Below, in pieces: positions 1-46,090 of a DNA stretch of 64,000 nt (its first letter is position 1; every line of letters begins with the position of its first letter). This stretch comes from an uncultured Actinomycetes bacterium (lineage in GTDB: Bacteria; Actinomycetota; Thermoleophilia; RBG-16-64-13), in NCBI GenBank assembly GCA_963706025.1, contig CAVPLM010000003.1, forward strand, positions 576,001 to 640,000. Reading direction: 5' to 3'. A program made the translations under genes and the position numbers. Under the pieces are notes generated by a model that ran no database searches, was not told the DNA's origin, and saw only the letters and a program-made list of their open reading frames with translations.

Positions 1-7
1 CGGAGAG

Positions 8-1831
8 ATGACTCAGGAGTACATCGATTTCTACGTTGAGCGGGCCAAGAATGGCGTTGGACTGATAGTTGTCGAGAATACCTGCGTCGACTGGCCCGCC
101 GGCAAGGTTGCTAGTAATCCGCTCCGGCTAGACGACGAGAAGTTCATCCAAGGACTCCACGAGCTGGCCGAGGCGGTGCATCCATATGGCGCGAAACTTG
201 CCACCAATCTCCAACACGCCGGACGTCAGTCCAGCCCGATCTATACGGAGGGCCATGAACTGCAATCGGCCTCTTCGGTGCCCTGTGAGTCGACGGGCGG
301 TCACATCCCGCACGCATTGACTTTGCCCGAAGTCGAACAGATAGTCGAGAAGTTCGCTCAGGCTGTTCGGCGCACCGCTGCGGCCGGATTCGATATCGCT
401 CAACTGCACGGGGCGCATGGCTACCTGATAAGTCAATTCCTGTCCCCGTTCACCAATAAGCGCAGCGACAAATACGGCGGAAGCTTTGAGAATCGCCTGC
501 GATTTCCTCGAGAGATAGTTGCACGTGCCCGGGAGCTGGTTGGGAAGGATTTCCCGATAGAGCTTCGATTGAGCGGTGATGAACTGTTGGAGGAGGGCTA
601 CGCCCTCAAGGACGGCGTCAGCATCGCTCGAGCCATGGTGGAGGCTGGTATTACGAGCATAAGCGTATCTGCGGGGATTTACGAACGTCCAACCGCCTGT
701 TTTCCCACGATGTCGATGCCGCGTGCCGTTTGGTCGGAGATCGGCGCGGCATTCAAAGAAGCTTTGGACGTACCGGTCACGCTCGTTGGCAAGCTTGACG
801 ATCCGATTGATGCCGTCAGAGTGCTGGAAGAGGGCAAGGCCGATCTGGTAGCCATCGGACGCCAGCATCTTGCTGATCCCGAATGGGCCAGGAAGGTTGC
901 AGAGGGCCGAGTCGGCGACATACGCCCTTGCATCCACTGCAATGAGGGGTGCGCAGGGAACCTGGGCAAGGACTGGAGGGTAGGCTGCGACGTCAATCCA
1001 GCGGTCGGCCACGAGGTCGCATATGCCATCAAGGAAGCTCCCAAACGCAAGAAGGTTCTCGTGGCCGGCGGGGGGCCGGCTGGTATGGAAGCCGCCAGAA
1101 TGGCGGCCTTGCGCGGGCATCAGGTTATCCTCTTTGAGAAGTCGGACCAACTGGGAGGACTGCTCAACTACGCAGGAGTGCCTGACTTTAAGGACGACAT
1201 ACGCCGGTACAGACGGTATCTGGTTGGTCAGATGAAGGAACTATGGGTGGAAACACGTCTCGGCCAAGAAGTGACTCCTGCACTCGTTCAAGAGCACGAC
1301 CCTGACGTAGTCATAGTGGCGACAGGGGCGCAGCCGAAGGCTAATGCGATTCCTACGGCGTCCGGCGCCAAAGTGCTCCAAGCTATCGAGGTGCTCGGTG
1401 CGCCGATCCCGGAAGGTCGGTCTGCCGTGGTTGTTGGAGGCGGCCGGGTCGGCGTTGAGATTGCTCGGTACCTCGCCGAAAAAGGCAAGAAGGTCATGAT
1501 TGTAGAGATGCTGCCAGATTGGGCCTACGACACGGCGGGAGTCAACAAGGTAGAGATGATTGAGACGCTGGCGGCGCTTGATGTGCCCGTGCTGACGAAC
1601 ACGGCCGCAAAGGCGATTCGAATGGACGGGGTAGAGGTCGTGACGAACGGTGAGGAGCGGCTGCTTGCGGCGGACTTCGTCGTGACAGCTTTGGGCTTCA
1701 ACCCCGACCCGACTTTGGCTCAGGAGTTGGAGGGGATAGTGCCCGAGGTCTACTCCATCGGAGATCTGAATGGTGGAACGCGAATCTGGGGGGCTACTCA
1801 CGATGCATGGAGGGTGGCAAGAGCGATCTAG
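8..1831 (+). CDS. NADH:flavin oxidoreductase, OYE/2,4-dienoyl-CoA reductase/BaiCD-H type (FMN barrel + 4Fe-4S + FAD domain); probably starts upstream of the window
   Basis: LHGAHGYL.SQFLSP.TN.R.D.YGGS.ENR.RF motif; CIHCNEGC..C cluster motif; GGGPAG and GGGRVG Rossmann motifs. Confidence 0.9.
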   Translation: MTQEYIDFYVERAKNGVGLIVVENTCVDWPAGKVASNPLRLDDEKFIQGLHELAEAVHPYGAKLATNLQHAGRQSSPIYTEGHELQSASSVPCESTGGHIPHALTLPEVEQIVEKFAQAVRRTAAAGFDIAQLHGAHGYLISQFLSPFTNKRSDKYGGSFENRLRFPREIVARARELVGKDFPIELRLSGDELLEEGYALKDGVSIARAMVEAGITSISVSAGIYERPTACFPTMSMPRAVWSEIGAAFKEALDVPVTLVGKLDDPIDAVRVLEEGKADLVAIGRQHLADPEWARKVAEGRVGDIRPCIHCNEGCAGNLGKDWRVGCDVNPAVGHEVAYAIKEAPKRKKVLVAGGGPAGMEAARMAALRGHQVILFEKSDQLGGLLNYAGVPDFKDDIRRYRRYLVGQMKELWVETRLGQEVTPALVQEHDPDVVIVATGAQPKANAIPTASGAKVLQAIEVLGAPIPEGRSAVVVGGGRVGVEIARYLAEKGKKVMIVEMLPDWAYDTAGVNKVEMIETLAALDVPVLTNTAAKAIRMDGVEVVTNGEERLLAADFVVTALGFNPDPTLAQELEGIVPEVYSIGDLNGGTRIWGATHDAWRVARAI

Positions 1832-1906
1832 AACTCGGTGGAGCTAGTCGCGGAGACCCCGGTTCGGGCGACGGTTCAGAACTAAACCGTATAGCAAGGA
1901 GCAACA

Positions 1907-2401
1907 ATGAAGGGGCCGACAGTGGCTTTGGGCACGCTGGCTCAGATCGGCGTAGTGGTGAGAGATCTGCAGAAGACTATCGATGAGTACTGGAACATTT
2001 TTGGCATAGGTCCGTGGAGCATTTGGAAATATGATCCCACAGTCGTTGAGGACGTGACCTACCGAGGTGAGCCCCACGAGTTCGCGTGGACGATTGCGCT
2101 GGCCCAGGATGGACCGGTTCAATGGGAAGTTATCGAGCCGCTCTGGGGGGAGAGTATCTACACGGAGTTTCTTCGGGAGCACGGAGAAGGTTTGCACCAC
2201 GTGGCCTACTTGGTGGACGGCGCCTGGAAAATCGTTGAAGACCTCAACCCAGTTGGGGTGACCGCGATTCAGAGCGGCTTCGTCAAAGGGCGTCCGTTCA
2301 TCTACCTCGATACAGAAAAACGGTTGGGGGCGTGCTTTGAGTTGATTGGGACAGGGGGCACACACCTCCCTCCCGACAGGGTTTACCCGAGCGCGGAGTA
2401 A
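1907..2401 (+). CDS. VOC/glyoxalase family protein (methylmalonyl-CoA epimerase-like)
   Basis: QIGVVVRDL, WEVIEP, FLREHGEGLHHVAY and C-terminal FELI motifs; AAGGAG RBS. Confidence 0.85.
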   Translation: MKGPTVALGTLAQIGVVVRDLQKTIDEYWNIFGIGPWSIWKYDPTVVEDVTYRGEPHEFAWTIALAQDGPVQWEVIEPLWGESIYTEFLREHGEGLHHVAYLVDGAWKIVEDLNPVGVTAIQSGFVKGRPFIYLDTEKRLGACFELIGTGGTHLPPDRVYPSAE

Positions 2402-2479
2402 GCTGGAGCAGCAATCCGCCCGGCAGTCGCCGCACGTTTAAGATGGTGAGGATGTTACTGATAAGAAGGAGAGTGGATC

Positions 2480-2863
2480 ATGGGCAGGGAAGAGAACATC
2501 GCCGTAGTCGCGAAGTACACCGAGGCAGTCAACAAGCGTGACGCGGAAGGTTTCCTGTCTGTCTTTGACGCCGATTCCGTGTGGATCGATCCAATGGGTA
2601 CTCCACCGTGCGTTGGCCCGGAGCAGATCCTCCGTGGCATCCAGGGTTTCTGGGACGCCCTTCCCAGCCTTACGCTGACCCCCCTCAGGATCATCGCTGA
2701 TGGAGACATCGTGGTCAGCGAGGTGGCCTGCGACGTTGCCAACGCCGAGGGAAAGACAGCGCACATCGAGGCCGCTGACATATTCGAAATACGAGACGGC
2801 AAGATCAGGAACTGTCACGCCTACTCCGACCCCGCCTGGATTAGCCGCCAACTAGCCGGCTAG
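2480..2863 (+). CDS. NTF2/SnoaL-like protein, ketosteroid isomerase-like
   Basis: 127 aa; Y13, D37-PMG and D100 align by eye with KSI Y14, D38-PVG and D99; RDGKI motif. Confidence 0.8.
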   Translation: MGREENIAVVAKYTEAVNKRDAEGFLSVFDADSVWIDPMGTPPCVGPEQILRGIQGFWDALPSLTLTPLRIIADGDIVVSEVACDVANAEGKTAHIEAADIFEIRDGKIRNCHAYSDPAWISRQLAG

Positions 2864-2960
2864 TGGGTGAAGTCGACTCTTCTGCAGATGTGATTCGCTT
2901 GCTCTGGAGGCAAGCCAGGGCTCGATGGGCTGTGGCCATTAACGAGGAGGTAGACTGATC

Positions 2961-4832
2961 ATGCCTAACGGTTACACCGGCAACATCCTTAGGGTTGACC
3001 TGACGCGTGGGACCTGGGCAACGGAGCACCCCGAGGAGATCTTCTATCGCACGCATCTGGGTGGTAGGGCGTTGGCCGCCTATTACCTGCTGAACGATGT
3101 TCCTGCTTCGGCCGATGCTCTTGGCCCTGCGAACGAGCTCGTTTTCGCTGTGAGCGTGACCACGGGTGCCCCGGTTCCGGGGCTCTCGCGCTACACGGTG
3201 GCGGCGAAGTCCCCTCTGAGTGGTCTGTATGGTGAGGCCGAGGCCAGCGGGTACTTTGGCGCCGAGATGAAGTGGGCTGGATATGATGCGATCATCTTCG
3301 AGGGATGTTCACCCCACCCAGTGTACCTTGCCATCGTCGATGGACAGGTTGAGCTCCGCGACGCTGCCCACCTATGGGGCAAGGACACTGGCGATGTCCA
3401 GGCGGCCATCTGGGAGGAATTGGGTGACAAAAAGGTGCAGGTTGCTCAGATTGGACCCGCAGGTGAGAACCTCGTTCGGTTCGCGTGTGTACTGTCAGGG
3501 CCCGTTTTTAGTCACGTGAACGGACGAGCTGGTATGGGTGCTGTCATGGGCTCGAAGAAGCTGCGCGCGGTGGCAGTCCGTGGTCACCAGAAGAACGCGG
3601 TTAAGGACAGGGAGGCGCTGAAGACGCTGGCCGCGTGGTTTGGACAGACCTGGAAGTCGAACCCTGACGATCTTCTACTACACGAGGTTGGCACCGCCGC
3701 CTACCTTTCGGCACTGGATGCAGCAGGTATCTTGCCTACCCGCAACTTCAGCGAAGGGACTTTCGAAGCTACCGATGCTGTCAGCGCCGAGGCCATGCGC
3801 CAGGAGCTGGTGGTGAGCAGCGAAGGCTGTTACGCCTGTCCTGTGCGGTGCAAGCATCCTGTGGAGTCGGATGGTGTCTACAAGATAGATCCGCTGTACG
3901 GCGGTCCGGAGTACGAGAGTCTGGCAGCTTTCAGTTCATCCCAGGGTGTATCTAACGTGGCCGCGGCAGCCAAGGCGAACGAGCTGTGCAATCGCTGGGG
4001 CTTGGACACGATCGGGGCGGGAGTCACGATTGCCTTTGGGCAGGAGTGCCTCGAAAGGGGCATCCTGAGTGAGGAGGAGGTCGGCGTCGAGTTGCGCTTC
4101 GGCAACGCTGAGGCAATGCTGACGATGCTTGAGCAGATCACTTTCCGAAGAGGTTTCGGCGACATCCTTGCCGAGGGAACGAAGCGCGCGGCCGAGAAGA
4201 TTGGCAAAGGTGCGGAGAAGCTGGCCATGCAGGTCAAGGGACAGGAGTTGCCGCTGCATGACCCGCGAGGCAAGAAAGGCGTGGGACTGGGTTACGCAGT
4301 ATCTCCCACGGGGGCGGACCATCTGCAGATTGAGCACGACGGTGCTTTTGCCGCTCAGGGCCTTTTTCTGGACAAGATCAGGCCGCTGGGGATCAATGAA
4401 CCTGTCGATGCCCTTTCTCTTGGACCCGAGAAGACGCGACTCTTCACCTACTTGCAGATATGGTGGAGTCTGCTAAACAGCCTGGATTGGTGCTACTTCA
4501 CTGTCGCACCCGTCCGTCACTTTGAAGTTGAACATGTGGCGCAGATCGTCGAGGCCTGCACAGGCTGGAACACTAGCACCTGGGAACTCATGAAGGTTGG
4601 AGAGCGCGCTCTGACGGAGTTGCGCCTGTTCAACCTGAAGCACGGCTGGAGCAGGAAGGACGATGCACTGCCTGATCGTCTGTACGAGCCGTTGCCAGGC
4701 GGTCCGATGGAGGGATTCAGGATGGACCGCGGGGAGGTGGAAGCGGCTATCGACGCCTATCACGGCATGATGGGATGGGATGAACGAACCGGTGTACCCA
4801 CAGGGGCGAAGTTGGCGGAGCTGCAACTGTGA
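2961..4832 (+). CDS. aor: tungsten-type aldehyde:ferredoxin oxidoreductase
   Basis: GYTGNILRVDLT, KSPL, GRAGMGAVMGSKKLRA, CYACPVRC, PEYE, CNRWGLDTI, GLGYAVSPTGADH motifs. Confidence 0.93.
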   Translation: MPNGYTGNILRVDLTRGTWATEHPEEIFYRTHLGGRALAAYYLLNDVPASADALGPANELVFAVSVTTGAPVPGLSRYTVAAKSPLSGLYGEAEASGYFGAEMKWAGYDAIIFEGCSPHPVYLAIVDGQVELRDAAHLWGKDTGDVQAAIWEELGDKKVQVAQIGPAGENLVRFACVLSGPVFSHVNGRAGMGAVMGSKKLRAVAVRGHQKNAVKDREALKTLAAWFGQTWKSNPDDLLLHEVGTAAYLSALDAAGILPTRNFSEGTFEATDAVSAEAMRQELVVSSEGCYACPVRCKHPVESDGVYKIDPLYGGPEYESLAAFSSSQGVSNVAAAAKANELCNRWGLDTIGAGVTIAFGQECLERGILSEEEVGVELRFGNAEAMLTMLEQITFRRGFGDILAEGTKRAAEKIGKGAEKLAMQVKGQELPLHDPRGKKGVGLGYAVSPTGADHLQIEHDGAFAAQGLFLDKIRPLGINEPVDALSLGPEKTRLFTYLQIWWSLLNSLDWCYFTVAPVRHFEVEHVAQIVEACTGWNTSTWELMKVGERALTELRLFNLKHGWSRKDDALPDRLYEPLPGGPMEGFRMDRGEVEAAIDAYHGMMGWDERTGVPTGAKLAELQL

Positions 4833-4920
4833 GTCTCTGAACCTTTGGTTGCAGTGTTGACGTGCTCAAGCTGGTGCCCGGGAACCGAGGAAACGGAGCT
4901 CGAAAGAGGAGGGAAGGACC

Positions 4921-5550
4921 ATGGCGACCGATTTGGTCAGCCTCGTATCAGATTTGAAGGAGGAAGAGGCCCTAGAACTGGCTCAAGACAGACTAAACCG
5001 GGGGGATGACCCGCTCGCTATTCTGAACGATGCGAGAAAGGGCTTGGAGATCGTTGGCAAGCGTTTTGAGCAAGGGACGTACTTCATCCCAGACCTGGTC
5101 TACTCGGGCGAGATACTTCAGGGAATCTCAGCCATCGTCAAACCAAGATTGACCGGCGGGGCCGGCGGCGAGAAGATCGGCAAGTTCATTCTGGGAACCG
5201 TTGCCGGCGATATTCACGATATTGGCAAGGATATTGTTAAGTTCATGCTGGATATCAACGGTATTGAGGTCCATGATCTGGGGGTGGACGTCCCCGCCCA
5301 GAGATTCGTGGAAGCAATAAGGGAGACTGAAGCGCCCCTCGTCGGGCTGAGCGGGTTCCTGACCTTAGCCTTCGATTCGATGAGGGAGACGGTAGAAGCC
5401 ATCAGGCTGGCCGGGCTGAGAGACCAGGTGAAGATTCTGATCGGCGGCTTCCCCGTGGACGAGGAGGTCAGGGTCTATACCGGTGCGGACGCTTTTGGGA
5501 AGGACGCCACGCAGGCTGTGTCGCTTGCGAAGGCCTATCTAGCACTCTGA
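4921..5550 (+). CDS. corrinoid (cobalamin-binding) protein of a methyltransferase system
   Basis: N-terminal cap domain; GDIHDIGK (DxHxxG), DLGVDV, GLSG, IGG motifs. Confidence 0.93.
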   Translation: MATDLVSLVSDLKEEEALELAQDRLNRGDDPLAILNDARKGLEIVGKRFEQGTYFIPDLVYSGEILQGISAIVKPRLTGGAGGEKIGKFILGTVAGDIHDIGKDIVKFMLDINGIEVHDLGVDVPAQRFVEAIRETEAPLVGLSGFLTLAFDSMRETVEAIRLAGLRDQVKILIGGFPVDEEVRVYTGADAFGKDATQAVSLAKAYLAL

Positions 5551-5581
5551 AGGTTTGGGAAACCGAATAGGGGGTTCTTAC

Positions 5582-6916
5582 ATGGAGGAGAAGACCAAAG
5601 CCCAGGAGATGTTGGATCTGTGGTGCTCCGCTCCCGGCATCGAATTCGTCGACTCTGAGGCTGAGGAGGCGTATAAGTCCAGGACCCGAAGGATCGCCGA
5701 CGCGATTCAACTCAAGAAACCGGATAGAGTGCCCGTCACTCCCATGTGGGAATACTACTACGGCGTCTACTCGAAGGTCAGCAGTTATGACTGCCTCTAC
5801 AACCCGGATATCGCCAGATGGGCAGTCAAAAAGACAATCACCGAACTGAAACCGGACGCGTTTGAAGCACCATTCAACTTCATGATCGGACCCGTGCTCG
5901 ACGCTCTTGGCGAGAAGGACCTGCTCTGGGCGGGTCATGGGTTAGACTACAACGCTGCGCACCAGTACGTCGAAGGGGAGCATCTCAAGGCAGACGAATA
6001 CGAGGCTCTTATTAACGACCCCAGTGACTGTATGATGAGGGTGGTCCTGCCTCGTGTCTGCGGCAACCTGAAGGGCCTTGAGGTCCTGGCCCCCCTGCGC
6101 AATACCTTTTTCACCTACGCCATGTACGGCCAGTTTGCTGGCCTGGGCACCCCGGAAGGCAAGGAAGCGCTGAGCGCCCTCATGAGGGCTGGAGAGGCTT
6201 CTCGGGCGTATGTGGACTGGGTCGCCGCGACAAGCCAAGAGATGTACTCTCTAGGCTTCCCGTGCTTCATCGGGGGCATCTGTTTTGCGCCCTACGACGC
6301 TGTGGCCGACTCGCTGAGAGGTACTCACGGCGCCATGATGGACATGTACCGTCGGCCAGAGCTATTGAAGGAGGCCTGCGAGAAGTTTCTGTGGGTGAAC
6401 TTCAATCTCGCCATGGCCGCTACAGAAGCGGCGAAGAACCCGATTGCCTTCATCCCACTTCACAAGGGCACGGCCTCCACCCGCGATGGCAAGGGCGGCT
6501 TCATGTCCCTAGGGCAATTCGAGGAGTTCTACTGGTACTACCTGAGAAGACTGATGATGAAGCTCATCGAGAACGGCAGAGTGCCCCATCTGCTCATCGA
6601 GGGTGACTACACGTCCCGGCTGGAGATCATCAAAGACGTGCCTCCGGGCACCTGCATCTACCACTTTGAAGAGGTAGACATCCCGAAAGCCAAGGAAGTG
6701 CTTGGCGACCGAGTCTGCCTGCAGGGCAAAGTCCCGATCCAGCTGATGTGGATGGGTACACCCCAAGACGTCAAGGACTACTGCAAGCATCTGATTGACG
6801 TCTGGGGTGAGGGCGGGGGTTTTATCATGGACATGGTGATGGCCTCGGAGCAGATCAGGCCGGAAAACATGAAAGCCTTAATTGAATTCACGAAGGAATA
6901 CGGCGTGTATCGATGA
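5582..6916 (+). CDS. UroD-family (COG0407-type) corrinoid methyltransferase, MT I-like
   Basis: PDRVP, APYD..D.LRG....MD.YRRP, FIPLHKG, QFEEFYW, AKEVLG..CLQG.VP, GGGFI motifs; lies between corrinoid protein and pterin methyltransferase; ATG 5582 preferred as start. Confidence 0.85.
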   Translation: MEEKTKAQEMLDLWCSAPGIEFVDSEAEEAYKSRTRRIADAIQLKKPDRVPVTPMWEYYYGVYSKVSSYDCLYNPDIARWAVKKTITELKPDAFEAPFNFMIGPVLDALGEKDLLWAGHGLDYNAAHQYVEGEHLKADEYEALINDPSDCMMRVVLPRVCGNLKGLEVLAPLRNTFFTYAMYGQFAGLGTPEGKEALSALMRAGEASRAYVDWVAATSQEMYSLGFPCFIGGICFAPYDAVADSLRGTHGAMMDMYRRPELLKEACEKFLWVNFNLAMAATEAAKNPIAFIPLHKGTASTRDGKGGFMSLGQFEEFYWYYLRRLMMKLIENGRVPHLLIEGDYTSRLEIIKDVPPGTCIYHFEEVDIPKAKEVLGDRVCLQGKVPIQLMWMGTPQDVKDYCKHLIDVWGEGGGFIMDMVMASEQIRPENMKALIEFTKEYGVYR

Positions 6917-6965
6917 TGAGGAAGCCTCGATTGAGTCAAGGCCTGGCGATCCAAGAGGGGTAGGC

Positions 6966-7772
6966 ATGCTTCTCATCGGTGAGAAGATAAATGGCACCCG
7001 CGAAAGCGTAGCTGACGCCATTCGAAGCAGGGAGAAGGGATTCATCGCGGATCTGGCGCTGCGTCAGGTAGAGGCCGGAGCAACGTACCTTGATGTGCAT
7101 GCGGGGACGCGCCCGGAGGATGAGCCGGCAGACATGGTGTGGCTGATCGATGCCATCCAGCGGGTCACCGATGTCACGCTCTGCCTCGACAGCGCAAACC
7201 CCCGTGCCCTGGTTGCCGGCCTAGACGCGGTGAAGAAGAAGCCCATGATCAACTCCCTCAGTGGCGAGAAGAATCGGGTGGAGAATGTCCTCCCCTGGGC
7301 ATGCAAGTACGAGACCGAGCTTGTTGTCCTGGCAATGGATGACCGGGGGATCCCCAAGTCAGTCGATGAGAGACTCTCCATTGTGCGCTCCCTCGTGGAA
7401 CTGACCCGTGATGGGGGGCTGCCGGACGAGAAGCTATACATTGATCCCCTAATCACAGCTGTTGCCACCGACACCGGAAGCGGCATCACAGCGTTTGAGA
7501 CGATGCGGCGAATTAAAGAGGAGTTTCCCGAGGTCCATCTCACAGCCGGACTGAGCAACATCTCCTTTGGCCTCCCGGTCAGGCCGATTGTTAACCAGGC
7601 CTTCGCGGTTCTGGCCATCGAGGCTGGGTTGGACAGCGCGATCCTCGATCCTGAGGATGTTGAGCTGCGAGGCATCATGTACGCCGCCGAACTGGTGCTC
7701 GGCAGGGACAGACGCTGCCAGGGTTATACCAACGCCTATCGCGCCGGGCTCATAGGCAGGCAAAACGGCTAG
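6966..7772 (+). CDS. methyltetrahydrofolate:corrinoid methyltransferase (AcsE/MT II-like, pterin-binding)
   Basis: MLLIGEKING, YLDVHAG, CLDS, MINS, YIDPL, GLSNISFGLP.R, GLDSAILDP motifs. Confidence 0.92.
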   Translation: MLLIGEKINGTRESVADAIRSREKGFIADLALRQVEAGATYLDVHAGTRPEDEPADMVWLIDAIQRVTDVTLCLDSANPRALVAGLDAVKKKPMINSLSGEKNRVENVLPWACKYETELVVLAMDDRGIPKSVDERLSIVRSLVELTRDGGLPDEKLYIDPLITAVATDTGSGITAFETMRRIKEEFPEVHLTAGLSNISFGLPVRPIVNQAFAVLAIEAGLDSAILDPEDVELRGIMYAAELVLGRDRRCQGYTNAYRAGLIGRQNG

Positions 7773-8027
7773 AACCTGGCTCAGTGCCCTTGGATCGGAT
7801 GCGAGATCGAGACCCTCCGACGGCCTTTTGTCGGCCGTAGCCCGGCCGGTTCCCCCAGCGGGCCTTGGCTACCTCGGTCAAGAAGGTAAGGATGAACTCC
7901 TCCTGGTAGTCGTAGAGATCGCAGGGGATAGGCGAGGAAGAGGACGGGTCGTGTGCCAGGCAGTTCGCCCGAATCCATCCGACGACGACTACTGAGTCGA
8001 TGACAATGAAGAAGGACTCAGTCCCGA

Positions 8028-8876
8028 TTGATTAGAGGAACCCCAGACACAGATTGGACGGCGCTCAATCGTCTCGCCTCTCGCCTTCGGGCAGACGTGA
8101 TCGAGATGCTCTATCGCGCTCAGGCTGGCCACCCTGGGGGATCGATGAGTGCGGTAGAGATACTCGTCGCTCTGTATTTCAAGATCCTCCGCGTCGACCC
8201 ACAAAACCCGCGATGGGTCAACCGCGACCGCTTTGTGCTTTCAAAGGGACACGCCTCGGCAATCTACTACGCTGTGTTGGCAGAGCGGGGCTTCTTTCCC
8301 AAGAGCGTGCTGGCTACATACGATGAGCTTGACTCATGTCTGCAGGCTCATCCAGACTTGCAGACGCCGGGAGTCGACGCTCCTTCTGGCTCGCTGGGTC
8401 AGGGGTTGTCGGTGGGGGTAGGAATGGCTCTCGCCGCCCGCCTCGATGCGAAAGACTGCCGTATATACGTGCTCCTGGGAGATGGGGAGTTGGAAGAAGG
8501 GCAAGTCTGGGAGGCAGCGATGGCCGCCTCAAGGTTCAACCTGTGTACTTTGACGGCCATCGTCGACTACAACAAACTCCAGCTCGCGGGGCGCACAAAT
8601 GAAGTGATGGCTATAGAACCGCTCTCCGAGAAGTGGAAAGCCTTCAACTGGCACGTGATCGAGGTGCCGGGTCACGACATTAGGGCAGTCGCGGAGGCAT
8701 GCAGCACCGCGGCGACGATTACGAACCAGCCGACCGTCATAGTCGCCCACACCGTGAAAGGTAAAGGCGTCTCCTTCATGGAAGACGACTATCGGTGGCA
8801 CTCGGCTCCGATCACGGATGAAAACAGGGAGCGGGCGTTGGCAGAGCTAGGCGCAGCCGACGGGGGCGCGAGATGA
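8028..8876 (+). CDS. transketolase-family N-terminal (ThDP-binding) subunit
   Basis: GHPGGSMS, DRFVLSKGH, GSLGQGL, GDGELEEG..WEA, HTVKGKG motifs. Confidence 0.92.
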   Translation: MIRGTPDTDWTALNRLASRLRADVIEMLYRAQAGHPGGSMSAVEILVALYFKILRVDPQNPRWVNRDRFVLSKGHASAIYYAVLAERGFFPKSVLATYDELDSCLQAHPDLQTPGVDAPSGSLGQGLSVGVGMALAARLDAKDCRIYVLLGDGELEEGQVWEAAMAASRFNLCTLTAIVDYNKLQLAGRTNEVMAIEPLSEKWKAFNWHVIEVPGHDIRAVAEACSTAATITNQPTVIVAHTVKGKGVSFMEDDYRWHSAPITDENRERALAELGAADGGAR

Positions 8877-9811
8877 TACCGGGGTCGATTGTCGCTTTGC
8901 GGGATGGCTTTGGACAGGCTCTTGTCGACCTCGGGGCGACCAATCGACGCCTCGTTGTCCTGGACGGCGACGCCGCGCCCTCCACTAAGGCCAGCATGTT
9001 CGCGTCAGCATACCCGGACAGATTCTTTCAATTCGGCATCGCTGAGCAGAACATGATGAGTGCTGCAGCAGGCTTCGCATCCTTTGGCTTTGTGCCGGTC
9101 GTCAGTATCTTTGCCTGCTTCGCAACGAAGAGAGCGCTTGACCAGATCCGTATCTGTATAGCTCAACCTGCTCAGCACGTCGTCATCGCCGCCGGCTTCA
9201 GCGGCCTGCTGGTGGGCAAGAACGGTAAGACTCATCAATCGGTTCAAGACATGTCCATCATGCGCTCGATGCCGGAGATGACGGTCATCGCTCCGGCTGA
9301 TAGTGAGGAGGCGTATTGGGCTGTACTGGCAGCCGTCGAGTGTGACGGCCCGGTATACGTTCGACTGGTACGGGATCCAACGCCGGTCGTCTTCGAAAGC
9401 CGGCGTGACTTTGAGATTGGTCGAGCGATAACCGTCAGGGAGGGCAAGGACATAGCGCTGATTACCACCGGCACGATGCTGCCGCGGGCCATTGAGGCGG
9501 CAGACCTGCTCGAGCGTGAAGGAATACACGCCTACATCCTTCACGTCCCCACTCTCAAGCCGTTGGATGAAGATGCAATCGTTACCGCAGCCAAGGTGAC
9601 CTCGGCTGTAGTCACTTGCGAGGAACACAGCATCATCGGCGGCCTGGGGGGTGCAGTTTCCGAGACGTTGAGCGAACGCTGCCCGACGATAGTTGCGAGA
9701 GTAGGGTTGCGGGATACGTACGGTGCGTCGGGACCGCCTGAAGCTCTCCTCAAGAAGTTCGGGCTTACTGGAGAAGACATTGCAGCAAGCGCCCGGCGTT
9801 TGCTGGGGTGA
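8873..9811 (+). CDS. transketolase-family C-terminal subunit
   Basis: FGIAEQNM, THQS.QD, GPVYVR, EEHSIIGGLG motifs; ATGA overlap with the N-terminal subunit. Confidence 0.92.
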   Translation: MIPGSIVALRDGFGQALVDLGATNRRLVVLDGDAAPSTKASMFASAYPDRFFQFGIAEQNMMSAAAGFASFGFVPVVSIFACFATKRALDQIRICIAQPAQHVVIAAGFSGLLVGKNGKTHQSVQDMSIMRSMPEMTVIAPADSEEAYWAVLAAVECDGPVYVRLVRDPTPVVFESRRDFEIGRAITVREGKDIALITTGTMLPRAIEAADLLEREGIHAYILHVPTLKPLDEDAIVTAAKVTSAVVTCEEHSIIGGLGGAVSETLSERCPTIVARVGLRDTYGASGPPEALLKKFGLTGEDIAASARRLLG

Positions 9812-9881
9812 CGACGAAATTGACCGTGGCATTTGTGCGCAAACAGCCTACTCACCAACCTTCACGGGACCTGGTGCGCCG

Positions 9882-10130
9882 GTGAAGGCCAAGGTACTTG
9901 TGAAGCTGCCAGCGGGGGTAGTCGGACTGGGTCTACCTCTAGAAGTTGAGTGCGAGGGAGAAACAGTCGCTGAGGCTCTGGCTGACTCGATCGCTCACGA
10001 GCCCAAGCTGAAGTCACGGATACTTCGCGACGATGGTCACGTAGTCACGGGTGTGTTCCTCAATGGTCGGAACGTCCGGCAAAGTGGGGGTTCGGAAGCG
10101 TTGGAAGGTGGGGCTTGGCGGTGCTACTAG
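9882..10130 (+). pseudogene. MoaD/ThiS-like ubiquitin-fold sulfur carrier with degenerate C-terminus
   Basis: EVECEGETVAEAL...PKLKSRIL...VFLNGRNVR matches MoaD/SAMP, but the terminal Gly-Gly is missing in this frame. Confidence 0.6.
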
Positions 10131-10227
10131 TAGTGAGCAGCGAGCAGTGAAGCCTGGCCCGTGTGCCGGGGGTTCACAGTCACAAGTCGAGCGCGCCAAC
10201 TGCCTCTTCCGCCACCACTACGATAGG

Positions 10228-11203
10228 GAGTCGAGATGTCAGTCTTTCTTCAGGCGCCTTCTTGGCTTGCTCGCGGCCGTCATCTGTCTCGTCGCCATTG
10301 CGGTATCCGCCTGCGGCGGTGACTCGTCCCCAAGTCAGCGGGGTGATTTCCTCGTCGGATACAGGCTGCACCTCGAAGCTGTTCTTGCAGCCCGCGCCGT
10401 GGTTGTAGCCACTTCCAACCAGAGGCTCGCCGCGTACAACAGCGCTCCCACCAGACCGTTGACTGCTTCTGACCTGGTGGTTGATGAGGTGGATAGTCTT
10501 CTGAACCGGGTCCGCAAGGAGCTTCCCGTCCCTCCCGACGAGCCTCTACGGTCCTCGGATGCCGCCTGGAGGTCTGGGATTGTGCGCTGGTTCCGGGCTG
10601 AGCAAGCTCTCGCCTCCGAAGATTCCCAGAAGAACCGAGATGCGGAGCAACAGGCGATGGACGAGGAGCATGGCGCGGTTCGAGCTCTCACAAAGTACGT
10701 GACAGGGTCTATGACGGCGCCTTCGACTACCACCTCGATCGCGGCCGCACCGACGACCACAAAAACGGACACTTTGAAGGTCGATGAAGCGAAGTTCACC
10801 GCCGTTTGGCGAGCGCTCATGAAGATTGAAGGGGCGACTTCGGTAGGGGTCGTTTACAATGATATGCGCAACTTGGTCCAGGACTTTGCGACGGAGATAT
10901 CCCTTCCTGCCCCAGGACATGAATGATGATGAACGGTTGGTGGCGCTCGGGCTGTTGAGCATAGCGCAGGCGTATAACGACAGCCTTAGTCTCTGGAAGG
11001 CGCAAATTGACTTCGGGAAATCCGACTCCTACAAGGGGGCGGGACTCATACCCTATGCCACAGCCGAGGCGAGCTGGGTATCCAAATACGGTCTTTCGTT
11101 CGTCACTGGGGACAAGACCAAGTTGACTCCCGATAGCATTGAACGGGTCTGGTCCTGGGCTTACGACAAGACGGACGAACTAAGACCGATCTTGGCTCCA
11201 TAG
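10228..11203 (+). CDS. putative lipoprotein, split by a frameshift near 10905 (start approximate)
   Basis: RRLLGLLAAVICLVAIAVSA-C lipobox; Thr-rich linker; ORFs 10051-10926 and 10859-11203 overlap and join at a C run. Confidence 0.55.
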
Positions 11204-11436: not shown

Positions 11437-11490
11437 GTTATTAGCACTTAGCGCGATATGTGATAATAAGCTCCAGCGTTATTAGCGCTT
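11437..11490. promoter_or_regulatory. repeated operator-like boxes upstream of the first Fic gene
   Basis: GTTATTAGCACTT (11437) and GTTATTAGCGCTT (11478), with an imperfect inverted copy GATAATAA between them. Confidence 0.45.
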
Positions 11491-11510
11491 GTGAGAAGAG
11501 GGATGCTCTG

Positions 11511-12671
11511 GTGCAACGGGGGATGGCAGGGCGATTCGAGGTAACCGCGGTCGGCGGCGAACGCGTGCAGGCCTTCGTACCCGCGCCGCTGCCCCCGCAG
11601 CCCGCGGTCGAGATGAGTTCCGAGCGCCAGCGACTGCTGGAGGGTGCCCTGCTTGCGTGCGGCCGGCTCGATGCCGTCACAGCATTGCTGCCCGAGCCCG
11701 ACCTTTTCCTCTACTCCTACGTGCGCCGGGAGGCCGTGCTCTCGAGCCAGATCGAAGGCACGCAGTCGTCGCTATCCGATCTCCTGCTCTTCGAACTCGA
11801 CGAGGCGCCCGGAGTGCCATTCGACGACGTGGTCGAAGTGTCCACCTACGTTGCCGCTCTGGAGCATGGGCTCGCACGTTTGGCGGGCGGGTTTCCGCTC
11901 TCCAACAGGCTCCTGCGCGAGATTCACGGGGTTCTCCTCTCGCGAGGTCGCGGTGCCACCAAGCAGCCTGGCGAGTTCCGCACCAGCCAGAACTGGATCG
12001 GAGGGACCCGCCCGGGCAATGCCCGCTTCGTCCCTCCGCCGCCTCAGGAAGTGGAGCCGTGCATGGCTGCACTCGAACGATTCCTACACGATCCTGCCGC
12101 GCCGGGAGCGCTGGTCAAAGCGGCGCTTGCCCACGTGCAGTTCGAGACCATCCATCCTTTCCTGGACGGCAATGGGCGCGTCGGACGCCTTCTCATCTCC
12201 CTCCTCCTGCACCACGATGGCGTGCTGCGTCAGCCGCTTCTCTATCTGAGCCTCTACTTCAAGCAGCACCGAGCCGAGTACTATCGGCAACTCGACGCCG
12301 TTCGCACCACCGGTGACTGGGAGGCGTGGCTCGAGTTCTTCCTCGAAGGCGTCGCCGAAACCGCCAGCGGCGCTGTAGATACGGCCCATCGGCTGCTCGC
12401 CATGTTCCAGGGCGACGTCGCGCGCATTGAAGGCCTGGGCCGGTTGTCGGGGAATGCCCTGCGGGTGTTCGACGCTCTGCGCCGCCGTCCGGTGGCCGAT
12501 ATCGATCATCTGGCTCGGGAGACCGGCATTGCCTACTCTACCGCTGCGCGGGCAGTGGAGGCTCTCGTCGGGCTGGAGGTGCTCCGTGAGTTGACCGGCA
12601 GGCAGCGCGGGCGGGTGTTCGCCTATAGCCGGTATCTGGAGATCTTGAGCGAGGGGGCGCAGCCGCTGTGA
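11511..12671 (+). CDS. Fic family protein (DUF4172-type N-terminus, C-terminal HTH)
   Basis: EAVLSSQIEG, PGEFRTSQNWIGG, intact HPFLDGNGRVGR motif; start could be GTG 11511 or ATG 11523. Confidence 0.92.
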   Translation: MQRGMAGRFEVTAVGGERVQAFVPAPLPPQPAVEMSSERQRLLEGALLACGRLDAVTALLPEPDLFLYSYVRREAVLSSQIEGTQSSLSDLLLFELDEAPGVPFDDVVEVSTYVAALEHGLARLAGGFPLSNRLLREIHGVLLSRGRGATKQPGEFRTSQNWIGGTRPGNARFVPPPPQEVEPCMAALERFLHDPAAPGALVKAALAHVQFETIHPFLDGNGRVGRLLISLLLHHDGVLRQPLLYLSLYFKQHRAEYYRQLDAVRTTGDWEAWLEFFLEGVAETASGAVDTAHRLLAMFQGDVARIEGLGRLSGNALRVFDALRRRPVADIDHLARETGIAYSTAARAVEALVGLEVLRELTGRQRGRVFAYSRYLEILSEGAQPL

Positions 12672-39535: not shown

Positions 39536-40884
39536 CTAGTAGGTTCCGTACTGTTTCGCAGCCTGGATCATGGCCGCGAAATTCTCTTCCTTGGCGGTGT
39601 CGGCCCCGGCTCCGACGTCGAGGATGAAGCCGCCCTTGCCCTTCACCTCGTCGACAAGCGTGCGGCAGTATGCCGTCACTTCGCCGGCAGTCCCCAATTG
39701 CAGCAGCGACAGCGGCACGTTCCCCGCGATGCAGGCCACGCCGTCGAGGGCTTCCTTGGCCTTGCGCATGTCGGTCTGGTCGAAGTGCCACACGGTGCGG
39801 CCGGGCGGCAGGTCGCGGATGATCTCCAGCCGGGAGTTGTAGGCGCCCTCGGCGAAGAGGTAGGGTACCAGGCCCTCCTCGATGAGGCCTTGGCACATCT
39901 TGCGCAAGGTGGGCCAATAGAAGGTGCGGAACTGCTCGTCGTTCATGAAGCCGTCCGCGCCCTTGTGCAGGGGGATGAACACGGTCGGCGGCAGGAAGGG
40001 CGCAGCCTTACGAGTGACGTACTTGAGCAGCACAGGCAGCAGGCGTTCGCAGGCAGCCAGCACCTTCTCCGGATACCGGTAGAGATCGGTCACGATGCCC
40101 CGGGTACCGCGCAGGGTGTCGCCTAGGAAGTCGAAGGGTGCCCAGGTGACAAGGCCGAGATGCGCCGGGAAGCCCTCAGCCGCCAGGCGCATTTCCAAGC
40201 CGATGCTGAACTGTGCCCAAACGGCGGCCTGTTTGCCCGCCTCCATCAGCTTGGAGAACGCCTCCTGAAGCCGGGATCCCCCCAGCTTGCTGCCCAGTAG
40301 TCCGCTCCGCAGAGCTGGACCATGCCGAAAGGAGCGTCGAGTTTGGCCATACCGGCCAGGGCACCGTTGGTTCTGGGTATGTAGGTGCGCAGCATGTACC
40401 CGGTGGGGTCGTCTATGAGATCGTCGTACTCCTCGGGGAGCATCCACTCCCGCTCGACGTACTGGAAGCTGGCTTCCTTGGGCACGCCGTGGCCAGGCCA
40501 GCTGAAGAGCTTGTAGTCGAAAGCGTCGAAGATAGGCCCGGCACCCGCGGCGGCGATGGCGGACCCGACCACGGCATCAGGCTGGAGGCTGCGCGCATAG
40601 CTCACCCACGCTTCGCTCGCTTTCTCGGGGTCGTACATGACATCGTAAGGGGTGAACCCGGCTCGATCGGCCGGATAGAACTGGTTGAGGGTCGTGACCG
40701 GGACGCGGTCGGGCGCTTTCTGGAGAAGGATGGCGTCTCGCAGCCGGGCCGCCCTGGCCTTGTAGTCGATCTCAGCCTCGGGACTGACGAACGGCAGACG
40801 AGGGCTGGTGTAGAACTGGAAGCGCTGCTCCAGTTTCTCGTCGGCGGTCAGATCGGCCCACGAACGCTCGGCGTCCATACTCAT
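39536..40884 (-). CDS. UroD-family corrinoid methyltransferase, frameshift near 40280
   Basis: PDRVP and FQYVE in ORF 40246-40947; APFDFLGDTLRG, PLHKGADGFM, GNVP, GFIL in ORF 39536-40447; paralog of 5582-6916. Confidence 0.82.
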
Positions 40885-41021
40885 CTCCTGGTCGGTCTTG
40901 CTGAATGTTTGGCGAACAGGTCGATCACTGCTTCTCGCGCTCCGCACCGGGTCTTCTCTATCTCGGCCAGGAAACAGGCCAGCGCTTTCCCGCCGACGCC
41001 GATCTTGATGTTGGCGGGGGG

Positions 41022-42500: not shown

Positions 42501-45209
42501 CTAGTGCCGAGCCGTGCCCAGATAGCTCGCCTGCACGCGATCATCCGATTTCAGTGCGTCCGCCAGACCGGACACGACCACCTGTCCGGTCTGGAGGACG
42601 ATGCCCCGATGGGCCAGCGAGAGCGCCATCTCCGCGCTCTGCTCCACCATCAGCATGGTGAGACCCTCCTTGTTGAGCCTGGCCAGCGCCTCGAAGATGC
42701 GCTCCACCACGAGCGGGGCGAGACCCATGGAGGGCTCGTCGAGGAGCAGCAGCTGGGGCCGGCCGATGAGGGCCCGGCCGATGGCAAGCATCTGCTGCTC
42801 GCCGCCGGAGAGGGTCCCGGCCGGCTGCTTGCGCCGCTCCCCCAGGATGGGGAAGAGCTCGTAGACGTAGGCGATGTCGTCTGCAAGCGTCCCCCGCCAG
42901 TCTTTGCGGCCGGAACTGCCCACCACCAGGTTGTCCTGCACGGAGAGCTCCCGGAACAGCCGGCGCCCTTCGGGCACCTGGCACATGCCCCGGGCGGCGA
43001 TCTTGTCCGGGGCCAGGTGGGTGATGTCGAGCGCCCTGATAGCTGACGGAGCCGGCCTTGGGCCGCAGTAGGCCGGAGATGGTGTGGAGCAGCGTGCTCT
43101 TGCCCGCCCCGTTGGCCCCCAGAATCGCCACCACCTCGCCCTTGGGCACGGCGAAGGAGACGCCGCGCAGAGCCTCGATCGAGCCGTAGGAGGTGGTGAG
43201 GTCCTCGACCACCAGCAGGTCTTCGGGCTCGGGGCAACTGCCGTCGGCAAGCTCCCGGGTCTGGCAGAGGTCCGTGCGGTCGCTCCAGCTTGACCCCCAG
43301 ATAGGCCTCGATCACGGCCGGGTCCTTCTGCACCACCTCCGGCCGGCCCTGGGCGATCAGTCGCCCGTAGTCGAGGACGTAGACGTGCTCGGAGATGCCC
43401 ATGACCAGCTCGATGTCGTGCTCGACCAGGAGGACGGTGATGCCGGAGGCGCGGATGTTGCGGATCTGCTCGACCAGATAGGCGCGCTCGGAGGCGTTCA
43501 TGCCGGCCGCCGGCTCGTCGAGAAGCAGTAGGCGGGGCTCAGAGGCGAGCGCCCGGGCGATCTCCACCAGGCGCTGCGACCCATAGGGCAGGCTGGCGGC
43601 CGGCAGGTAGGCCTTGTCCTCGAGCCCCACCGCGGCCAGGGCCCGCATGGCCCGCTCCCGGGAAGCCTTCTCTTCGCGGCGCTGGTGAGGAAGCCCCAGC
43701 CCGCCGGCCCACAGCCCCGAGCGCTCGTGCCGGTGGCAGCCCACCAGCACGTTCTCGAGCACGGTCATGTTCACGTAGATGCGCAGGTTCTGGAAGGTTC
43801 GGGCCATGCCCAGGCGAGCGGTGTTGGCCGTCGACATCTTGGTGACGTCCTGTGCCCGCGAATTCGACGGAACCCCCCGTGAGCTTCTGCAGGCGGCTGA
43901 CGGCGTTGAAGAGCGTGGTCTTGCCGGCTCCGTTAGGGCCGATGAGGGCCACGATCTCACCTTCGTGGACCTCGAGCGAGACCTCATCGACCGCCTTCAG
44001 ACCGCCGAAGTGGACGGAAAGGTCCTCGACCGAGAAGCAGGGGCGACCGCTGGCGTCCGGCTGGCGCGATGCCGCGGCGGGTAGCCGGCCGCCGGTGCCG
44101 TCGTGGCGATCGCCGCTTCCCAGGCACGATGCGACCTCCGGCGAGACGGCCAGAGGCATGCCCACGGAGGTGGTGCACTGGCCCGGCTGGATCGTCCTCT
44201 TCGGCCGCCACCAGGCACTGGGCCGGCTCCTGCGAGCTTCTCCCGCCTGAGCAGGGCCTTGAGACGGGCCCGCTGGTCGGGCCGCAGGGCCAGCCCGGCA
44301 GGCAGGAAGATGAGGAGCAGGATCATGATGACCGAGTAGATGACCCCGCTGTACTGCTGGACGCTGCGAGAACCCGTTGATGACCCAGGTCATGAGGATG
44401 GCGCCGATCACCGAGCCCCAGACCGTCCCCCCGCCCAGGAGCATCATGACGATGGGCAGGATGGCGGCGGTGAAGGTGAAGGAGCTGGGGGTGACGGCCA
44501 TGGTGACGAAGGCATAGAGGCCGCCGGCCAGGCCGCAGATGACGGCGCTGGCCACGAAGGCCAGGAGCTTCCAGTTGGGCGTACGCACTCCCAGGCTCTG
44601 AGAGGCGATCTCGCTGGTGGCGATGGCCCGCAGCGCCCGGCCCGCCCGATACTTGAGGGCCCGGTCGACGAACAGGATGATGACGGCGGCCACCACCCAC
44701 ACCAAGTAGTACTGGCGGAGGTTGGTGTTGAAGTCGAATCCGAGGATGTTGAGCGTACGGGACGGGGGCCAAGCCCGTCGGTCGACCCGGTGACGCTGCG
44801 CAGTTGCTGCACCAGCACCAGGAAGATCTGACCCAGGCCGATGGTGGCAAGAGCCAGGTAGAAGTAGCGGAGCTTGAGCACCGGCCGCCCCACGATGAGG
44901 GCGATCATCCCGGCCACCAGGGCCCCGATGACGAGCGCCGCCAGGGTGGGGAACTCGGCCTTCATGGTGAGGATCGCGGCGGTGTAGGCGCCGATGCCGT
45001 AGAAGGCCGAGTGGCCGAAGGAGAGCTGGCCGGCCTGGCCCAGGATGATGACCACAGCGATGGTGAGGATGGTGAACAGACCGCCGGTGGTCATGATGCG
45101 CATGGCATATCCGCTCTGGTAGAGAAGCGGCCAGACCAGGAGGATGACCAGCAGCAGGGTCCTTGAAGAGGAAGCTGCGGCCCGCTCATGACAGCGCAGA
45201 GCGTTCCAT
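42501..45209 (-). CDS. LivM permease + LivG + LivF ATPase domains, apparently one fused gene, multiple frameshifts
   Basis: GQLSFGH..FYGIGAY; GPNGAGKTT...LLLDEPAAG; GANGAGKST...LSGGEQQML; no clear stop/RBS/start between the domains. Confidence 0.72.
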
Positions 45210-46090
45210 CAGGCCTCACCCTCGCCCGAAGGCTGGCCGAGGATCCCGCTCGGGCGGAAGTAGAGGATGAGGATGAGGACGACGTAGGCGACGGCGTCCT
45301 GATAGCCCGCGGGCAGGAAACCGGTGGCCAGCGACTGGATGATCCCCAGAGCGAGGCCGCCCACCACCGCCCCGCTGCTCGAGCCCCAGCCCCCCAGGAT
45401 GGCGGCCACGAAGCCCTGAGAGCGCGTAGATGCCCCCGGAGAGGTATGAGGTCGAGTTGATGGGGGTGACGGCGATGCCCCCCAGGGCCCCGATGGCCGC
45501 CGAGATGGCAAAGGCGAGAAGGATCATGCGCCCCGTGTTGACCCCGGAGAGGCTGGCCGCACCCGGATCGTTAGAGGTGGCGGTCATCTGCTTGCCCATC
45601 CGGGTGCGGTTGGTCAGGAGGTACAGGCCGACGAGCACCAGGATCATGAGTCCGATCACCCACAGGCTCTGCGGGAAGACGGCCACCTTGCCGATGAAGA
45701 GGGCCTGGTCGCCGGTGAAGGCGGGCACGCTCTTGCCGTAGCCTCCCCACCTGAGCAGGGCCACGTTCTCGAAGAGGATGCTGAGAGCCATGGTGGCCAG
45801 GATGATCGACACCAGGGAGATCTTGATGAGAGGCCTGCAGCACCAGCAGGTACATGACGATGCGACCAAGACCGCCACGCGACGATGGCCAGCATCGCGG
45901 AGAGCCAATAGGGAAGCCCTATCTCGCTGAGGAACGAGTAGGTGAAGAAGGCCCCGAACATCACGAAGGCGCCCTGCGCCATGTTCACGATGCGCGACGT
46001 GCGGTAGATGGTCACGTATCCAAGAGCGATCAGAGAGTAAATACTCCCTACCGTGACCCCAGTCACCAATAACTGGATCCACTTGACCAC
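45209..46090 (-). CDS. livH: LivH-type ABC permease, frameshifted
   Basis: GSIYSLIALG...NMAQG; TRMGK.M.A; FVAAILGG.G; RPSGILG motifs. Confidence 0.8.

Follow-up and report, generated by a model that had tools for sequence, protein, structure and literature searches.

The present analysis concerns a window of 64,000 nucleotides from an uncultured Actinomycetes bacterium (G000:C3:576001-640000, where G000 is the source genome, a metagenome-assembled genome or MAG that is 92% complete) and in particular the gene run with which this window opens. The reading that we favour, by a modest balance of the evidence, is that this run belongs to a 13.4-kb horizontally acquired catabolic cassette, by means of which one methylated compound would be imported and demethylated onto folate, the remainder of the molecule being reduced and oxidised. 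The cassette comprises, in this order, a divergent IclR regulator, a PotABCD-like importer, an ene-reductase of the OYE/FadH type, a VOC protein, an NTF2-fold protein resembling ketosteroid isomerase (KSI), a tungsten-type aldehyde:ferredoxin oxidoreductase (AOR), a corrinoid protein (CoP), a substrate:corrinoid methyltransferase (MT I) and a methylcorrinoid:tetrahydrofolate methyltransferase (MT II). A first-pass annotation of the same DNA had proposed a cluster that ran from the ene-reductase to a split transketolase (TK) and a MoaD protein, and had tentatively linked it to steroids. The conserved unit is smaller than this cluster on the right, where it holds neither the transketolase nor the MoaD-like gene, and larger on the left, where the importer and the regulator are added. 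What is new is the combination of genes, assembled around a methyltransferase system of a familiar type.

A low-GC block shared by two genera

The existence of a discrete unit is best seen by comparison with G605 (also L002 and G401), a genome of the same family but of another genus. By tblastx, a block of 13.4 kb is colinear between G000:C3:570676-583856 and G605:C9:14143-27579. It extends from inside the IclR gene to 84 nt past the stop codon of MT II (C3:583856); beyond either end, the flanking sequences of the two genomes are unrelated. The GC content of the block is 58.3% and 59.0% in the two genomes, against 64.3-65.2% in the flanks; in G000, where the genome as a whole stands at 64%, values of 58-60% extend from IclR to about position 11,400 of the window. 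The encoded proteins are 86-93% identical in G000 and G605, apart from the VOC protein, the least conserved of the block at 73%, and RpoB is 88.6% identical between these two genomes and 94.1-95.7% identical within the genus. Of the 400 further genomes of the class, G605 alone was found to carry the gene of the NTF2 protein (SnoaL family), which was not found in any of the three same-genus genomes (G570, also L003 and G402; G421; G600). Orthologs of MT I are present in two deposited genomes, G605 (88% identical) and G570 (83%), the latter being the only one of the three same-genus genomes to possess it; the best matches in G421 and G600 are 37-38% identical. The whole block was found in none of these three. 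Since the block is discrete, low in GC, bordered by unrelated flanks and not found in the same-genus genomes, it looks like a horizontally transferred cassette, and the transfer would be recent. Integration marks were sought at the ends of the island, where neither a tRNA gene nor long direct repeats were found.

Within the window, the gene calls were checked with Pfam and NCBIfam profile searches, and the start codons of both methyltransferases were checked separately. Nine of the ten genes listed in the first-pass annotation as a single co-directional run were confirmed at their coordinates, the tenth being the "MoaD" discussed below. The ene-reductase gene is cut by the start of the window, since its Oxidored_FMN match begins at model position 37; the full gene starts at G000:C3:575846, 154 nt upstream of the window. 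Further upstream are found two permeases, a binding protein, an ABC ATPase and the divergent IclR regulator. After IclR, nine co-directional genes are separated by gaps of 4-146 nt, as measured from the coordinates of the open reading frames (ORFs). Terminator-like sites are not enriched over shuffled sequence (8 observed, 9.3 expected), and all three of those on the + strand fall within MT I. The association of ene-reductase, KSI-like protein and AOR with the methyltransferase module, as originally proposed, is thereby upheld as one closely spaced run kept as a block in G605. The gene order is real DNA and no assembly artefact, since metagenome contigs bridge both junctions around the transketolase: MT II to its N-terminal gene (X2 record 11, 7038-8176; X5 record 30, 7595-9385) and its C-terminal gene to the next ORF (X2 record 14 and X3 record 24). 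The covering contigs come from four metagenome runs of sediment or freshwater sediment in 2 studies, one of which possibly corresponds to the source sample. The runs with the stretch, all from sediment or freshwater sediment, hold 0.23-0.40 of its sampled words, and no RNA data set that could document co-transcription occurs among the listed holders.

An alternative explanation, which we consider unlikely, is that the island is a mosaic in which the methyltransferase module and the set from ene-reductase to AOR act on different substrates, the two having become neighbours through the piling up of accessory DNA, with an importer that may serve only one of them. The case for it is that G570 possesses the methyltransferase module alone beside unrelated genes, that many stand-alone copies of AOR, OYE and MT I/CoP genes are scattered in the genome, and that the adjoining transketolase illustrates how unrelated low-GC genes gather at this spot. 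However, the run from importer to MT II was moved or kept as one colinear, sharp-ended block in two genera, its tight spacing is accompanied by a single divergent regulator, and no terminator signal rises above the shuffled background.

Several observations nevertheless weigh against the single cassette that we prefer. In G570, CoP, MT I and MT II (81-83% identical) have a different upstream region, the best OYE match is only 40% identical and no SnoaL match was found, so that the methyltransferase module can stand alone. The evidence for unity comes from a single further genome, G605, which belongs to the same family. Conservation in other genomes, by which the first-pass annotation proposed to judge its cluster, therefore holds in part: from IclR to MT II in one other genus only, and not in the same-genus G570. 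The G605 copy is moreover imperfect, with a partial IclR gene (residues 2-117 matched) and with the ATPase, binding-protein, permease-1 and MT II genes each spread over several frames, which may mean either that the cassette is decaying or that long-read sequencing introduced errors. The completeness of the two MAGs (92% for G000, 86% for G605) caps all claims of absence. No member of the cassette passes the cut-off of any substrate-specific family model in NCBIfam. Finally, the gap between MT II and the transketolase is 255 nt in the window and shrinks to about 33 nt in the metagenome contig L030. This contig is otherwise near-identical and lacks about 225 nt of the spacer (roughly window 7776-8000); it looks like a deletion variant, because the first 84 nt of the spacer are common to G605. 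Contigs L029-L031 are 84-97% identical at the protein level (L030 being close at the DNA level also), and they bring no independent support since they are counted as the same population.

Predicted corrinoid methyl transfer and the accompanying enzymes

The three genes at the right end of the block supply its most readily interpreted part. The CoP combines a helical cap with a B12-binding Rossmann domain and carries the DxHxxG motif as DIHDIG at residue 97. MT II passes the NF005719 model (325.6 bits for a cut-off of 259), which places it with the pterin-binding methyltransferases of the methyl-tetrahydrofolate:corrinoid type. These parts, together with a UroD-superfamily MT I, are those of the three-component corrinoid-dependent O-demethylase and methyltransferase systems of anaerobes (MtvABC, OdmABC, VdmB, the archaeal MtoABCD and CdmBCA, which acts on chloromethane), and the host likewise encodes a RACo-type activator, elsewhere in its genome. 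The cassette module differs from these systems in that it forms one block with importer, ene-reductase, VOC, NTF2 and AOR genes. The layout of a three-component demethylase, already recognised in the first-pass annotation, is thus supported at the sequence level by the Pfam and NCBIfam matches and by the similarity of MT I to CdmB (PMC13222342). A full-text literature search for the gene combination of the cassette turned up only single mentions of its terms.

The substrate of MT I is less accessible from its relatives. Among solved structures these are limited to CdmB (9rui, 5.5e-23) and one UroD; as CdmB covers only the C-terminal half of the protein at this E-value, no substrate can be transferred from it. 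The relation of MT I to MtvB, OdmB, VdmB and MtoB is taken solely from the CdmB paper, in which CdmB adjoins the O-demethylases among MT I enzymes that include many clades of unknown substrate (PMC13222342). The homologs of MT I are 444-445 aa long, and all are unnamed or annotated as "uroporphyrinogen decarboxylase family"; some in other lineages are 55-66% identical. Among 401 genomes of its own phylum, 13 (G000 counted in) contain a match at E<=1e-30; these matches are at the level of paralogs only, since the best one beyond G000 is 42% identical. A search of 401 genomes of the phylum of L004, a contig from a Dehalococcoidales MAG, gave none at E<=1e-110, in a set that contains no positive control genome. 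On L004 itself, three MT I paralogs that are 34-39% identical to that of the cassette stand in tandem, with genes for an alpha/beta hydrolase and a member of the NAD-dependent epimerase family next to them.

Two further loci of this kind lie in the window, both on the - strand. A second pair of CoP (214 aa) and UroD-type MT I (374 aa) genes occupies positions 47393-49151 and is adjoined by Liv-type ABC genes (42650-46112). An MT I paralog, 40-41% identical, is spread over two frames at 39536-40947, either through a frameshift or as a pseudogene.

The host genome is rich in related functions, with about 17 loci for AOR, about 10 for OYE/FadH, 8 for corrinoid proteins and 6 for MT I; MT II has only 2. 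The RACo activator (RACo_C_ter 4.8e-87) is found outside the cassette at G000:C5:1036543, and MTHFR at G000:C5:1127459, beside a second methyltransferase cluster. No match to PF03598 (CdhC), the mark of acetyl-CoA synthase, was detected in the 92% complete genome, which argues that the host is no acetogen. Its gene content is that of an anaerobe which gathers methyl groups on tetrahydrofolate (THF) and probably oxidises them.

The ene-reductase has the complete architecture of FadH in a single chain: an N-terminal FMN-binding TIM barrel of the OYE family, a 4Fe-4S cluster motif (CxxCxxxCx11C, residue 362) and a C-terminal FAD/NAD(P) domain. This organisation is shared with FadH, 2-enoate reductase, 2-naphthoyl-CoA reductase and BaiCD, and the best solved relatives are 2-naphthoyl-CoA reductase (6qkg, 7.7e-100) and FadH (1ps9, 1.3e-89). 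The cassette enzyme nevertheless remains below every equivalog cut-off in this group, with 430.5 bits on the BaiCD model (NF041087) where 825 are required. The scores on two unrelated models are like that on BaiCD, at 442 bits for mycofactocin OYE_2 and 418 bits for bilirubin reductase, about half of the respective cut-offs, and the enzyme differs further from the group in having no CoA-activating gene nearby. An assignment as an amine dehydrogenase of the trimethylamine or histamine dehydrogenase type was considered and rejected, the matches being 4.9e-52 (histamine dehydrogenase) and 9.2e-48, against about 1e-100 for 2-naphthoyl-CoA reductase and about 1e-90 for FadH.

The two small proteins that follow are less informative. 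The VOC protein matches PDB 3gm5 at 2e-21 and methylmalonyl-CoA epimerase at just 3e-3. The NTF2 protein shares the fold of KSI, and by alignment offsets its Tyr13 and Asp37 (the latter in ...WIDPMGTPP...) fall on the catalytic Tyr16/Asp40 of the Pseudomonas putida enzyme and Tyr14/Asp38 of that of Comamonas testosteroni; the third catalytic Asp aligns ambiguously with Ala99 or Asp100. The matches to KSI chains are however weak (E 1e-4 to 1e-2) and no better than those to MonB, TerC and limonene epoxide hydrolase, which are equal or higher, and the protein reaches 35.4 bits on the KSI-related model TIGR02096, whose cut-off is 97.1. A Protein Atlas search of this protein and of MT I returned only generic NTF2 and URO-D clusters.

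The AOR presents all the features of its family. It matches AOR sensu stricto of Pyrococcus furiosus (1aor, 8.9e-117) over its full length, with both the AFOR_N and the AFOR_C domain and the cluster motif CxxCxxxC at residue 290. Unlike the P. furiosus enzyme, it is one of the roughly 17 AOR-family loci of its host, and no genes for companion Fe-S/FAD subunits accompany it. Its nearest database relatives are 91% and 77% identical, after which identity falls to a plateau of 51-58% in bacteria and archaea alike. This profile, together with the number of AOR loci in the genome, marks it as a generic AOR recruited into the cassette.

These enzymes bear directly on the steroid pathway of the first-pass annotation, in which an ene-reductase resembling BaiCD/BaiH, a ketosteroid isomerase, a transketolase resembling DesAB and a cobalamin methyltransferase would jointly transform a steroid. 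In favour of it, ketosteroids are reduced from Delta5 through Delta4 by an isomerase and then an ene-reductase; the domain layout shared with BaiCD and the position of Tyr13/Asp37 in the NTF2 protein point the same way. None of these resemblances is specific, however. The BaiCD score is matched by two other families and falls far short of its cut-off, the nearest solved OYE is 2-naphthoyl-CoA reductase, and the KSI matches are equalled or surpassed by those of epoxide hydrolases and MonB. The cassette includes no hydroxysteroid dehydrogenase, CoA ligase or CoA transferase, and its DNA is found in metagenomes of sediment and freshwater sediment. The steroid link is therefore abandoned here as very improbable, and the favoured reading of a demethylating cassette is retained in what follows.

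Importer, substrate class and proposed route

The importer also bears on the substrate. It consists of an ATPase, a binding protein and two permeases, and the permeases and the ATPase find their best models in PotB, PotC and PotA. All its proteins are nevertheless far under the cut-offs of the transporter families. The binding protein (459 aa, with a twin-arginine signal and a lipobox) scores 48 bits on the NCBIfam PotD model, where 582 are required, and matches no Pfam family of substrate-binding proteins. Members of its own family are scarce: of 1.84 billion representatives, only 23 match at E<=1e-30. The structural model (pLDDT 89) is nearest to PotF, PotD, SpuD and SpuE, with target-normalised TM-scores of 0.80-0.86 at 17-21% identity; binders of iron, sugar-phosphates and opines rank below these polyamine receptors. 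In a HMMER alignment to PotD, eight ligand positions can be aligned, and the protein has the PotD residue at four of them (D263, W336, W361 and Y399, for Asp168, Trp229, Trp255 and Tyr293). At the other four the residue differs, with Ala for Ser83, Cys for Tyr85, Trp for Glu171 and His for Asp257; Glu171 and Asp257 are the acidic anchors for the distal amines. No more than a hint can be drawn from the modelled binding protein, namely that the substrate may carry an amine or a positive charge, or at least that the protein is less likely to be an ordinary binder of aromatic acids.

If the PotD/PotF-like protein truly reports the class of the substrate, the latter could be an onium compound with its methyl group on N or S, a polyamine that carries methyl groups, or a hydroxycinnamoyl-polyamine with methoxy substituents. 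The structural proximity to polyamine receptors, above binders of iron, sugar-phosphates and opines, the four retained ligand residues and the PotA, PotB and PotC matches all speak for this view, which we still judge quite unlikely. Half of the ligand positions are changed, both distal-amine anchors included, and the transporter matches are as distant as described; since the binding-protein family is rare, its specificity is not readable from PotD. On the enzyme side, the MT I enzymes known to act on quaternary amines are members of the MttB superfamily and not of UroD, and no UroD-type MT I is known for amine-bearing methylated substrates such as methoxylated hydroxycinnamoyl-polyamines or onium compounds.

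The surroundings of the regulator gene also contain repeated elements. The IclR gene lies between the two arms of an inverted repeat of 65 nt, which are 75% complementary (L118, 1076-1140 and 2080-2144; G000:C3:570076-571144), and the motif TTGACAAAACC, which may be an operator, is found three times around the gene.

Under the favoured reading of one cassette acting on one compound, the following route can be proposed from the gene content. The ABC system would import a methylated compound, from which MT I would transfer the methyl group to the Co(I) form of the CoP, MT II passing it onward to THF. A RACo-type activator, encoded elsewhere, would keep the corrinoid active. The resulting methyl-THF would be oxidised through MTHFR, as no acetyl-CoA synthase was found. 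The NTF2 protein, the VOC protein or both would reposition a double bond or a stereocentre, the ene-reductase would saturate a C=C bond conjugated to a carbonyl, and the AOR, using ferredoxin as its carrier, would turn an aldehyde into the corresponding acid. There is no CoA ligase or transferase among the cassette genes, and free acids or aldehydes are therefore likelier substrates than CoA esters. The substrate is best read as a methylated molecule with an enone/enal or an aldehyde function. One guess is a phenylpropanoid aldehyde or enoate that bears methoxy groups: it would use three of the modules in a straight line, which is chemically coherent, and an amine-bearing variant of it would also account for the binding protein. 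In its most specific form, the proposal is that of an undescribed anaerobic route in which UroD-type demethylation, isomerisation, ene-reduction and oxidation by a tungsten AOR are brought to bear on one imported methylated substrate, perhaps an amine-bearing one, the whole being mobile between sediment Actinomycetota. So complete a picture can be advanced only tentatively, and we consider it unlikely.

The split transketolase and the rest of the island

The split transketolase, which the first-pass annotation counted as a member of the cluster, did not withstand comparison. This pair of genes (TK-N and TK-C, hereafter TK-a) is situated outside the block shared with G605, which ends before TK-N. 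No ortholog of TK-a was found in G605, G570, G421 or G600, where the best match of TK-C is 39-40% identical. Elsewhere in the class, a member of the same subfamily at 52-64% identity was detected in 29 of 400 other genomes. The flanks were examined for 20 of these 29 (18 belong to the TK-a type, the remaining 2 to the TK-b type described below), 9 of the 20 being shortened by contig ends. Neither CoP, MT I, MT II, AOR, OYE, VOC nor SnoaL genes were present in any of these 20 flanks. The TK-a-type flanks contain instead, within a few kb, a gene resembling zinc-dependent alcohol dehydrogenase (Zn-ADH) in 17 of 18 cases and an IclR-like gene in 11 of 18. In the one TK-a locus that was scanned with Pfam, creatininase-family and xylose-isomerase-like TIM-barrel genes lie in between. 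Judged by this comparative evidence, the transketolase is a neighbour rather than a conserved member of the cassette, and both its position and the company kept by its subfamily count further against the steroid pathway, in which it was to act as a desmolase-like enzyme. The transketolase may still be co-transcribed in this particular organism, since it directly follows MT II here and in the near-identical metagenome relatives.

TK-a is also unusual in its active site. Its closest solved counterpart is the split transketolase of Carboxydothermus hydrogenoformans (6yak, 1.9e-90 for TK-N; 6yaj, 2.1e-90 for TK-C), with which it shares the two-subunit layout, the thiamine diphosphate motif and most active-site positions. 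Arg10, Ser37 and Arg167 of TK-C align to Arg318, Ser345 and Arg474 of human transketolase. In contrast, Phe109 stands in place of the substrate-phosphate His and Lys116-Asn117 in place of the Glu-Asp of the GEDG motif, whereas the C. hydrogenoformans and human enzymes keep His and Glu-Asp at these positions. TK-C thus lacks the His and the GEDG Asp of a canonical pentose-phosphate transketolase. The same positions are Tyr/Phe and Lys/Phe-Thr/Ser/Asn in all 120 best homologs, and this common deviation defines a separate and widespread split-transketolase subfamily.

Two other split transketolases are encoded by the source genome. TK-b (48% and 54% identical to the two subunits of TK-a) is found at G000:C3:846001-864000 (L045), after a Liv-type ABC system, BKACE, a short-chain dehydrogenase (SDR) and DhaK/DhaL. 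This gene set recurs in G446 (L113), and both of the TK-b-type flanks mentioned above likewise contain BKACE, SDR, DhaK and DhaL. Given the location of TK-b beside DhaK/DhaL, it is conceivable that TK-a resembles dihydroxyacetone synthase. TK-c, at G000:C14:88001-104000 (L006), is accompanied by a VOC protein 31% identical to that of the cassette, a Zn-ADH and a cyclase. It is likely to be the transketolase of the lineage, since its type is common to all four close relatives checked.

The MoaD-like ORF matches no Pfam family and only SAMP1 (E 1e-5), at 25.9 bits for a cut-off of 60. It ends in ...GGSEALEGGAWRCY (...EGGAWRCY), without the C-terminal Gly-Gly, and no alternative frame restores this tail. 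By comparison, an intact MoaD paralog beside another AOR, at about 47.1-47.3 kb of C3, ends in ...PPIAGG. From its sequence, the MoaD-like ORF is thus a truncated remnant. The tail of the island (C3:585811-587400) has a GC content of 59.7%; the two transketolase genes, the truncated MoaD-like ORF and the ORF that follows it are additional DNA of low GC beside the cassette and do not belong to its conserved part. The features of the cassette and of the island tail that lie in the window are listed in Table 1.

Table 1. Features at the start of the window (positions are those of the window)
Feature	Coordinates	Strand	Supporting match or remark
OYE/FadH-type Fe-S flavoenzyme (ene-reductase), 3' 610 codons of 661-aa gene	1..1831	+	Oxidored_FMN 6.5e-61, Pyr_redox_2 1.9e-28
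VOC (glyoxalase-fold) protein, 164 aa	1907..2401	+	Glyoxalase_4 4.3e-18
SnoaL_2/NTF2-fold protein, 127 aa	2480..2863	+	SnoaL_2 3.5e-22
Tungsten-type AOR, 623 aa	2961..4832	+	AFOR_N 2.8e-71, AFOR_C 1.4e-121
CoP, 209 aa	4921..5550	+	B12-binding 3.4e-21, B12-binding_2 1.3e-12, TIGR02370 2.7e-43
UroD-superfamily MT I (substrate:corrinoid), 444 aa	ATG 5582..6916	+	URO-D 4.3e-18
MT II (methylcorrinoid:tetrahydrofolate), 268 aa	ATG 6966..7772	+	Pterin_bind 4.6e-24, NF005719 325.6 bits
Spacer MT II/TK-N	7773..8027	.	G605-shared block ends near 7856
Split transketolase N-terminal (thiamine diphosphate-binding) subunit TK-N	8028..8876	+	Transketolase_N 1.3e-55
Split transketolase C-terminal (Pyr + C) subunit TK-C	8873..9811	+	Transket_pyr 1.3e-36, Transketolase_C 2.6e-32
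MoaD/ThiS-like remnant	9882..10130	+	SAMP1 E 1e-5, below cut-off
ORF with signal-peptide/lipobox-like stretch, low-GC island tail	10051..10926	+	no Pfam/NCBIfam match

Just past the island, a gene of the Fic/DOC family is located at window positions 11460-12671. It has a paralog 80% identical at about 604.9-606.1 kb of G000:C5, and a relative (63%) is found near a TK-a-like gene in G573.

Corrinoid-dependent demethylation is a main anaerobic route to the methyl groups of compounds derived from plants and algae, and most MT I families are without a known substrate. By tying one MT I to an importer, a regulator and three redox or isomerase enzymes, the cassette provides unusually many handles on that substrate. 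The analysis also draws attention to a large unnamed subfamily of split transketolases devoid of two canonical substrate-binding residues. More generally, it points to uncultured sediment Actinomycetota that exchange such units, and in whose genomes about 17 loci of the AOR family occur together with several sets of methyltransferases.

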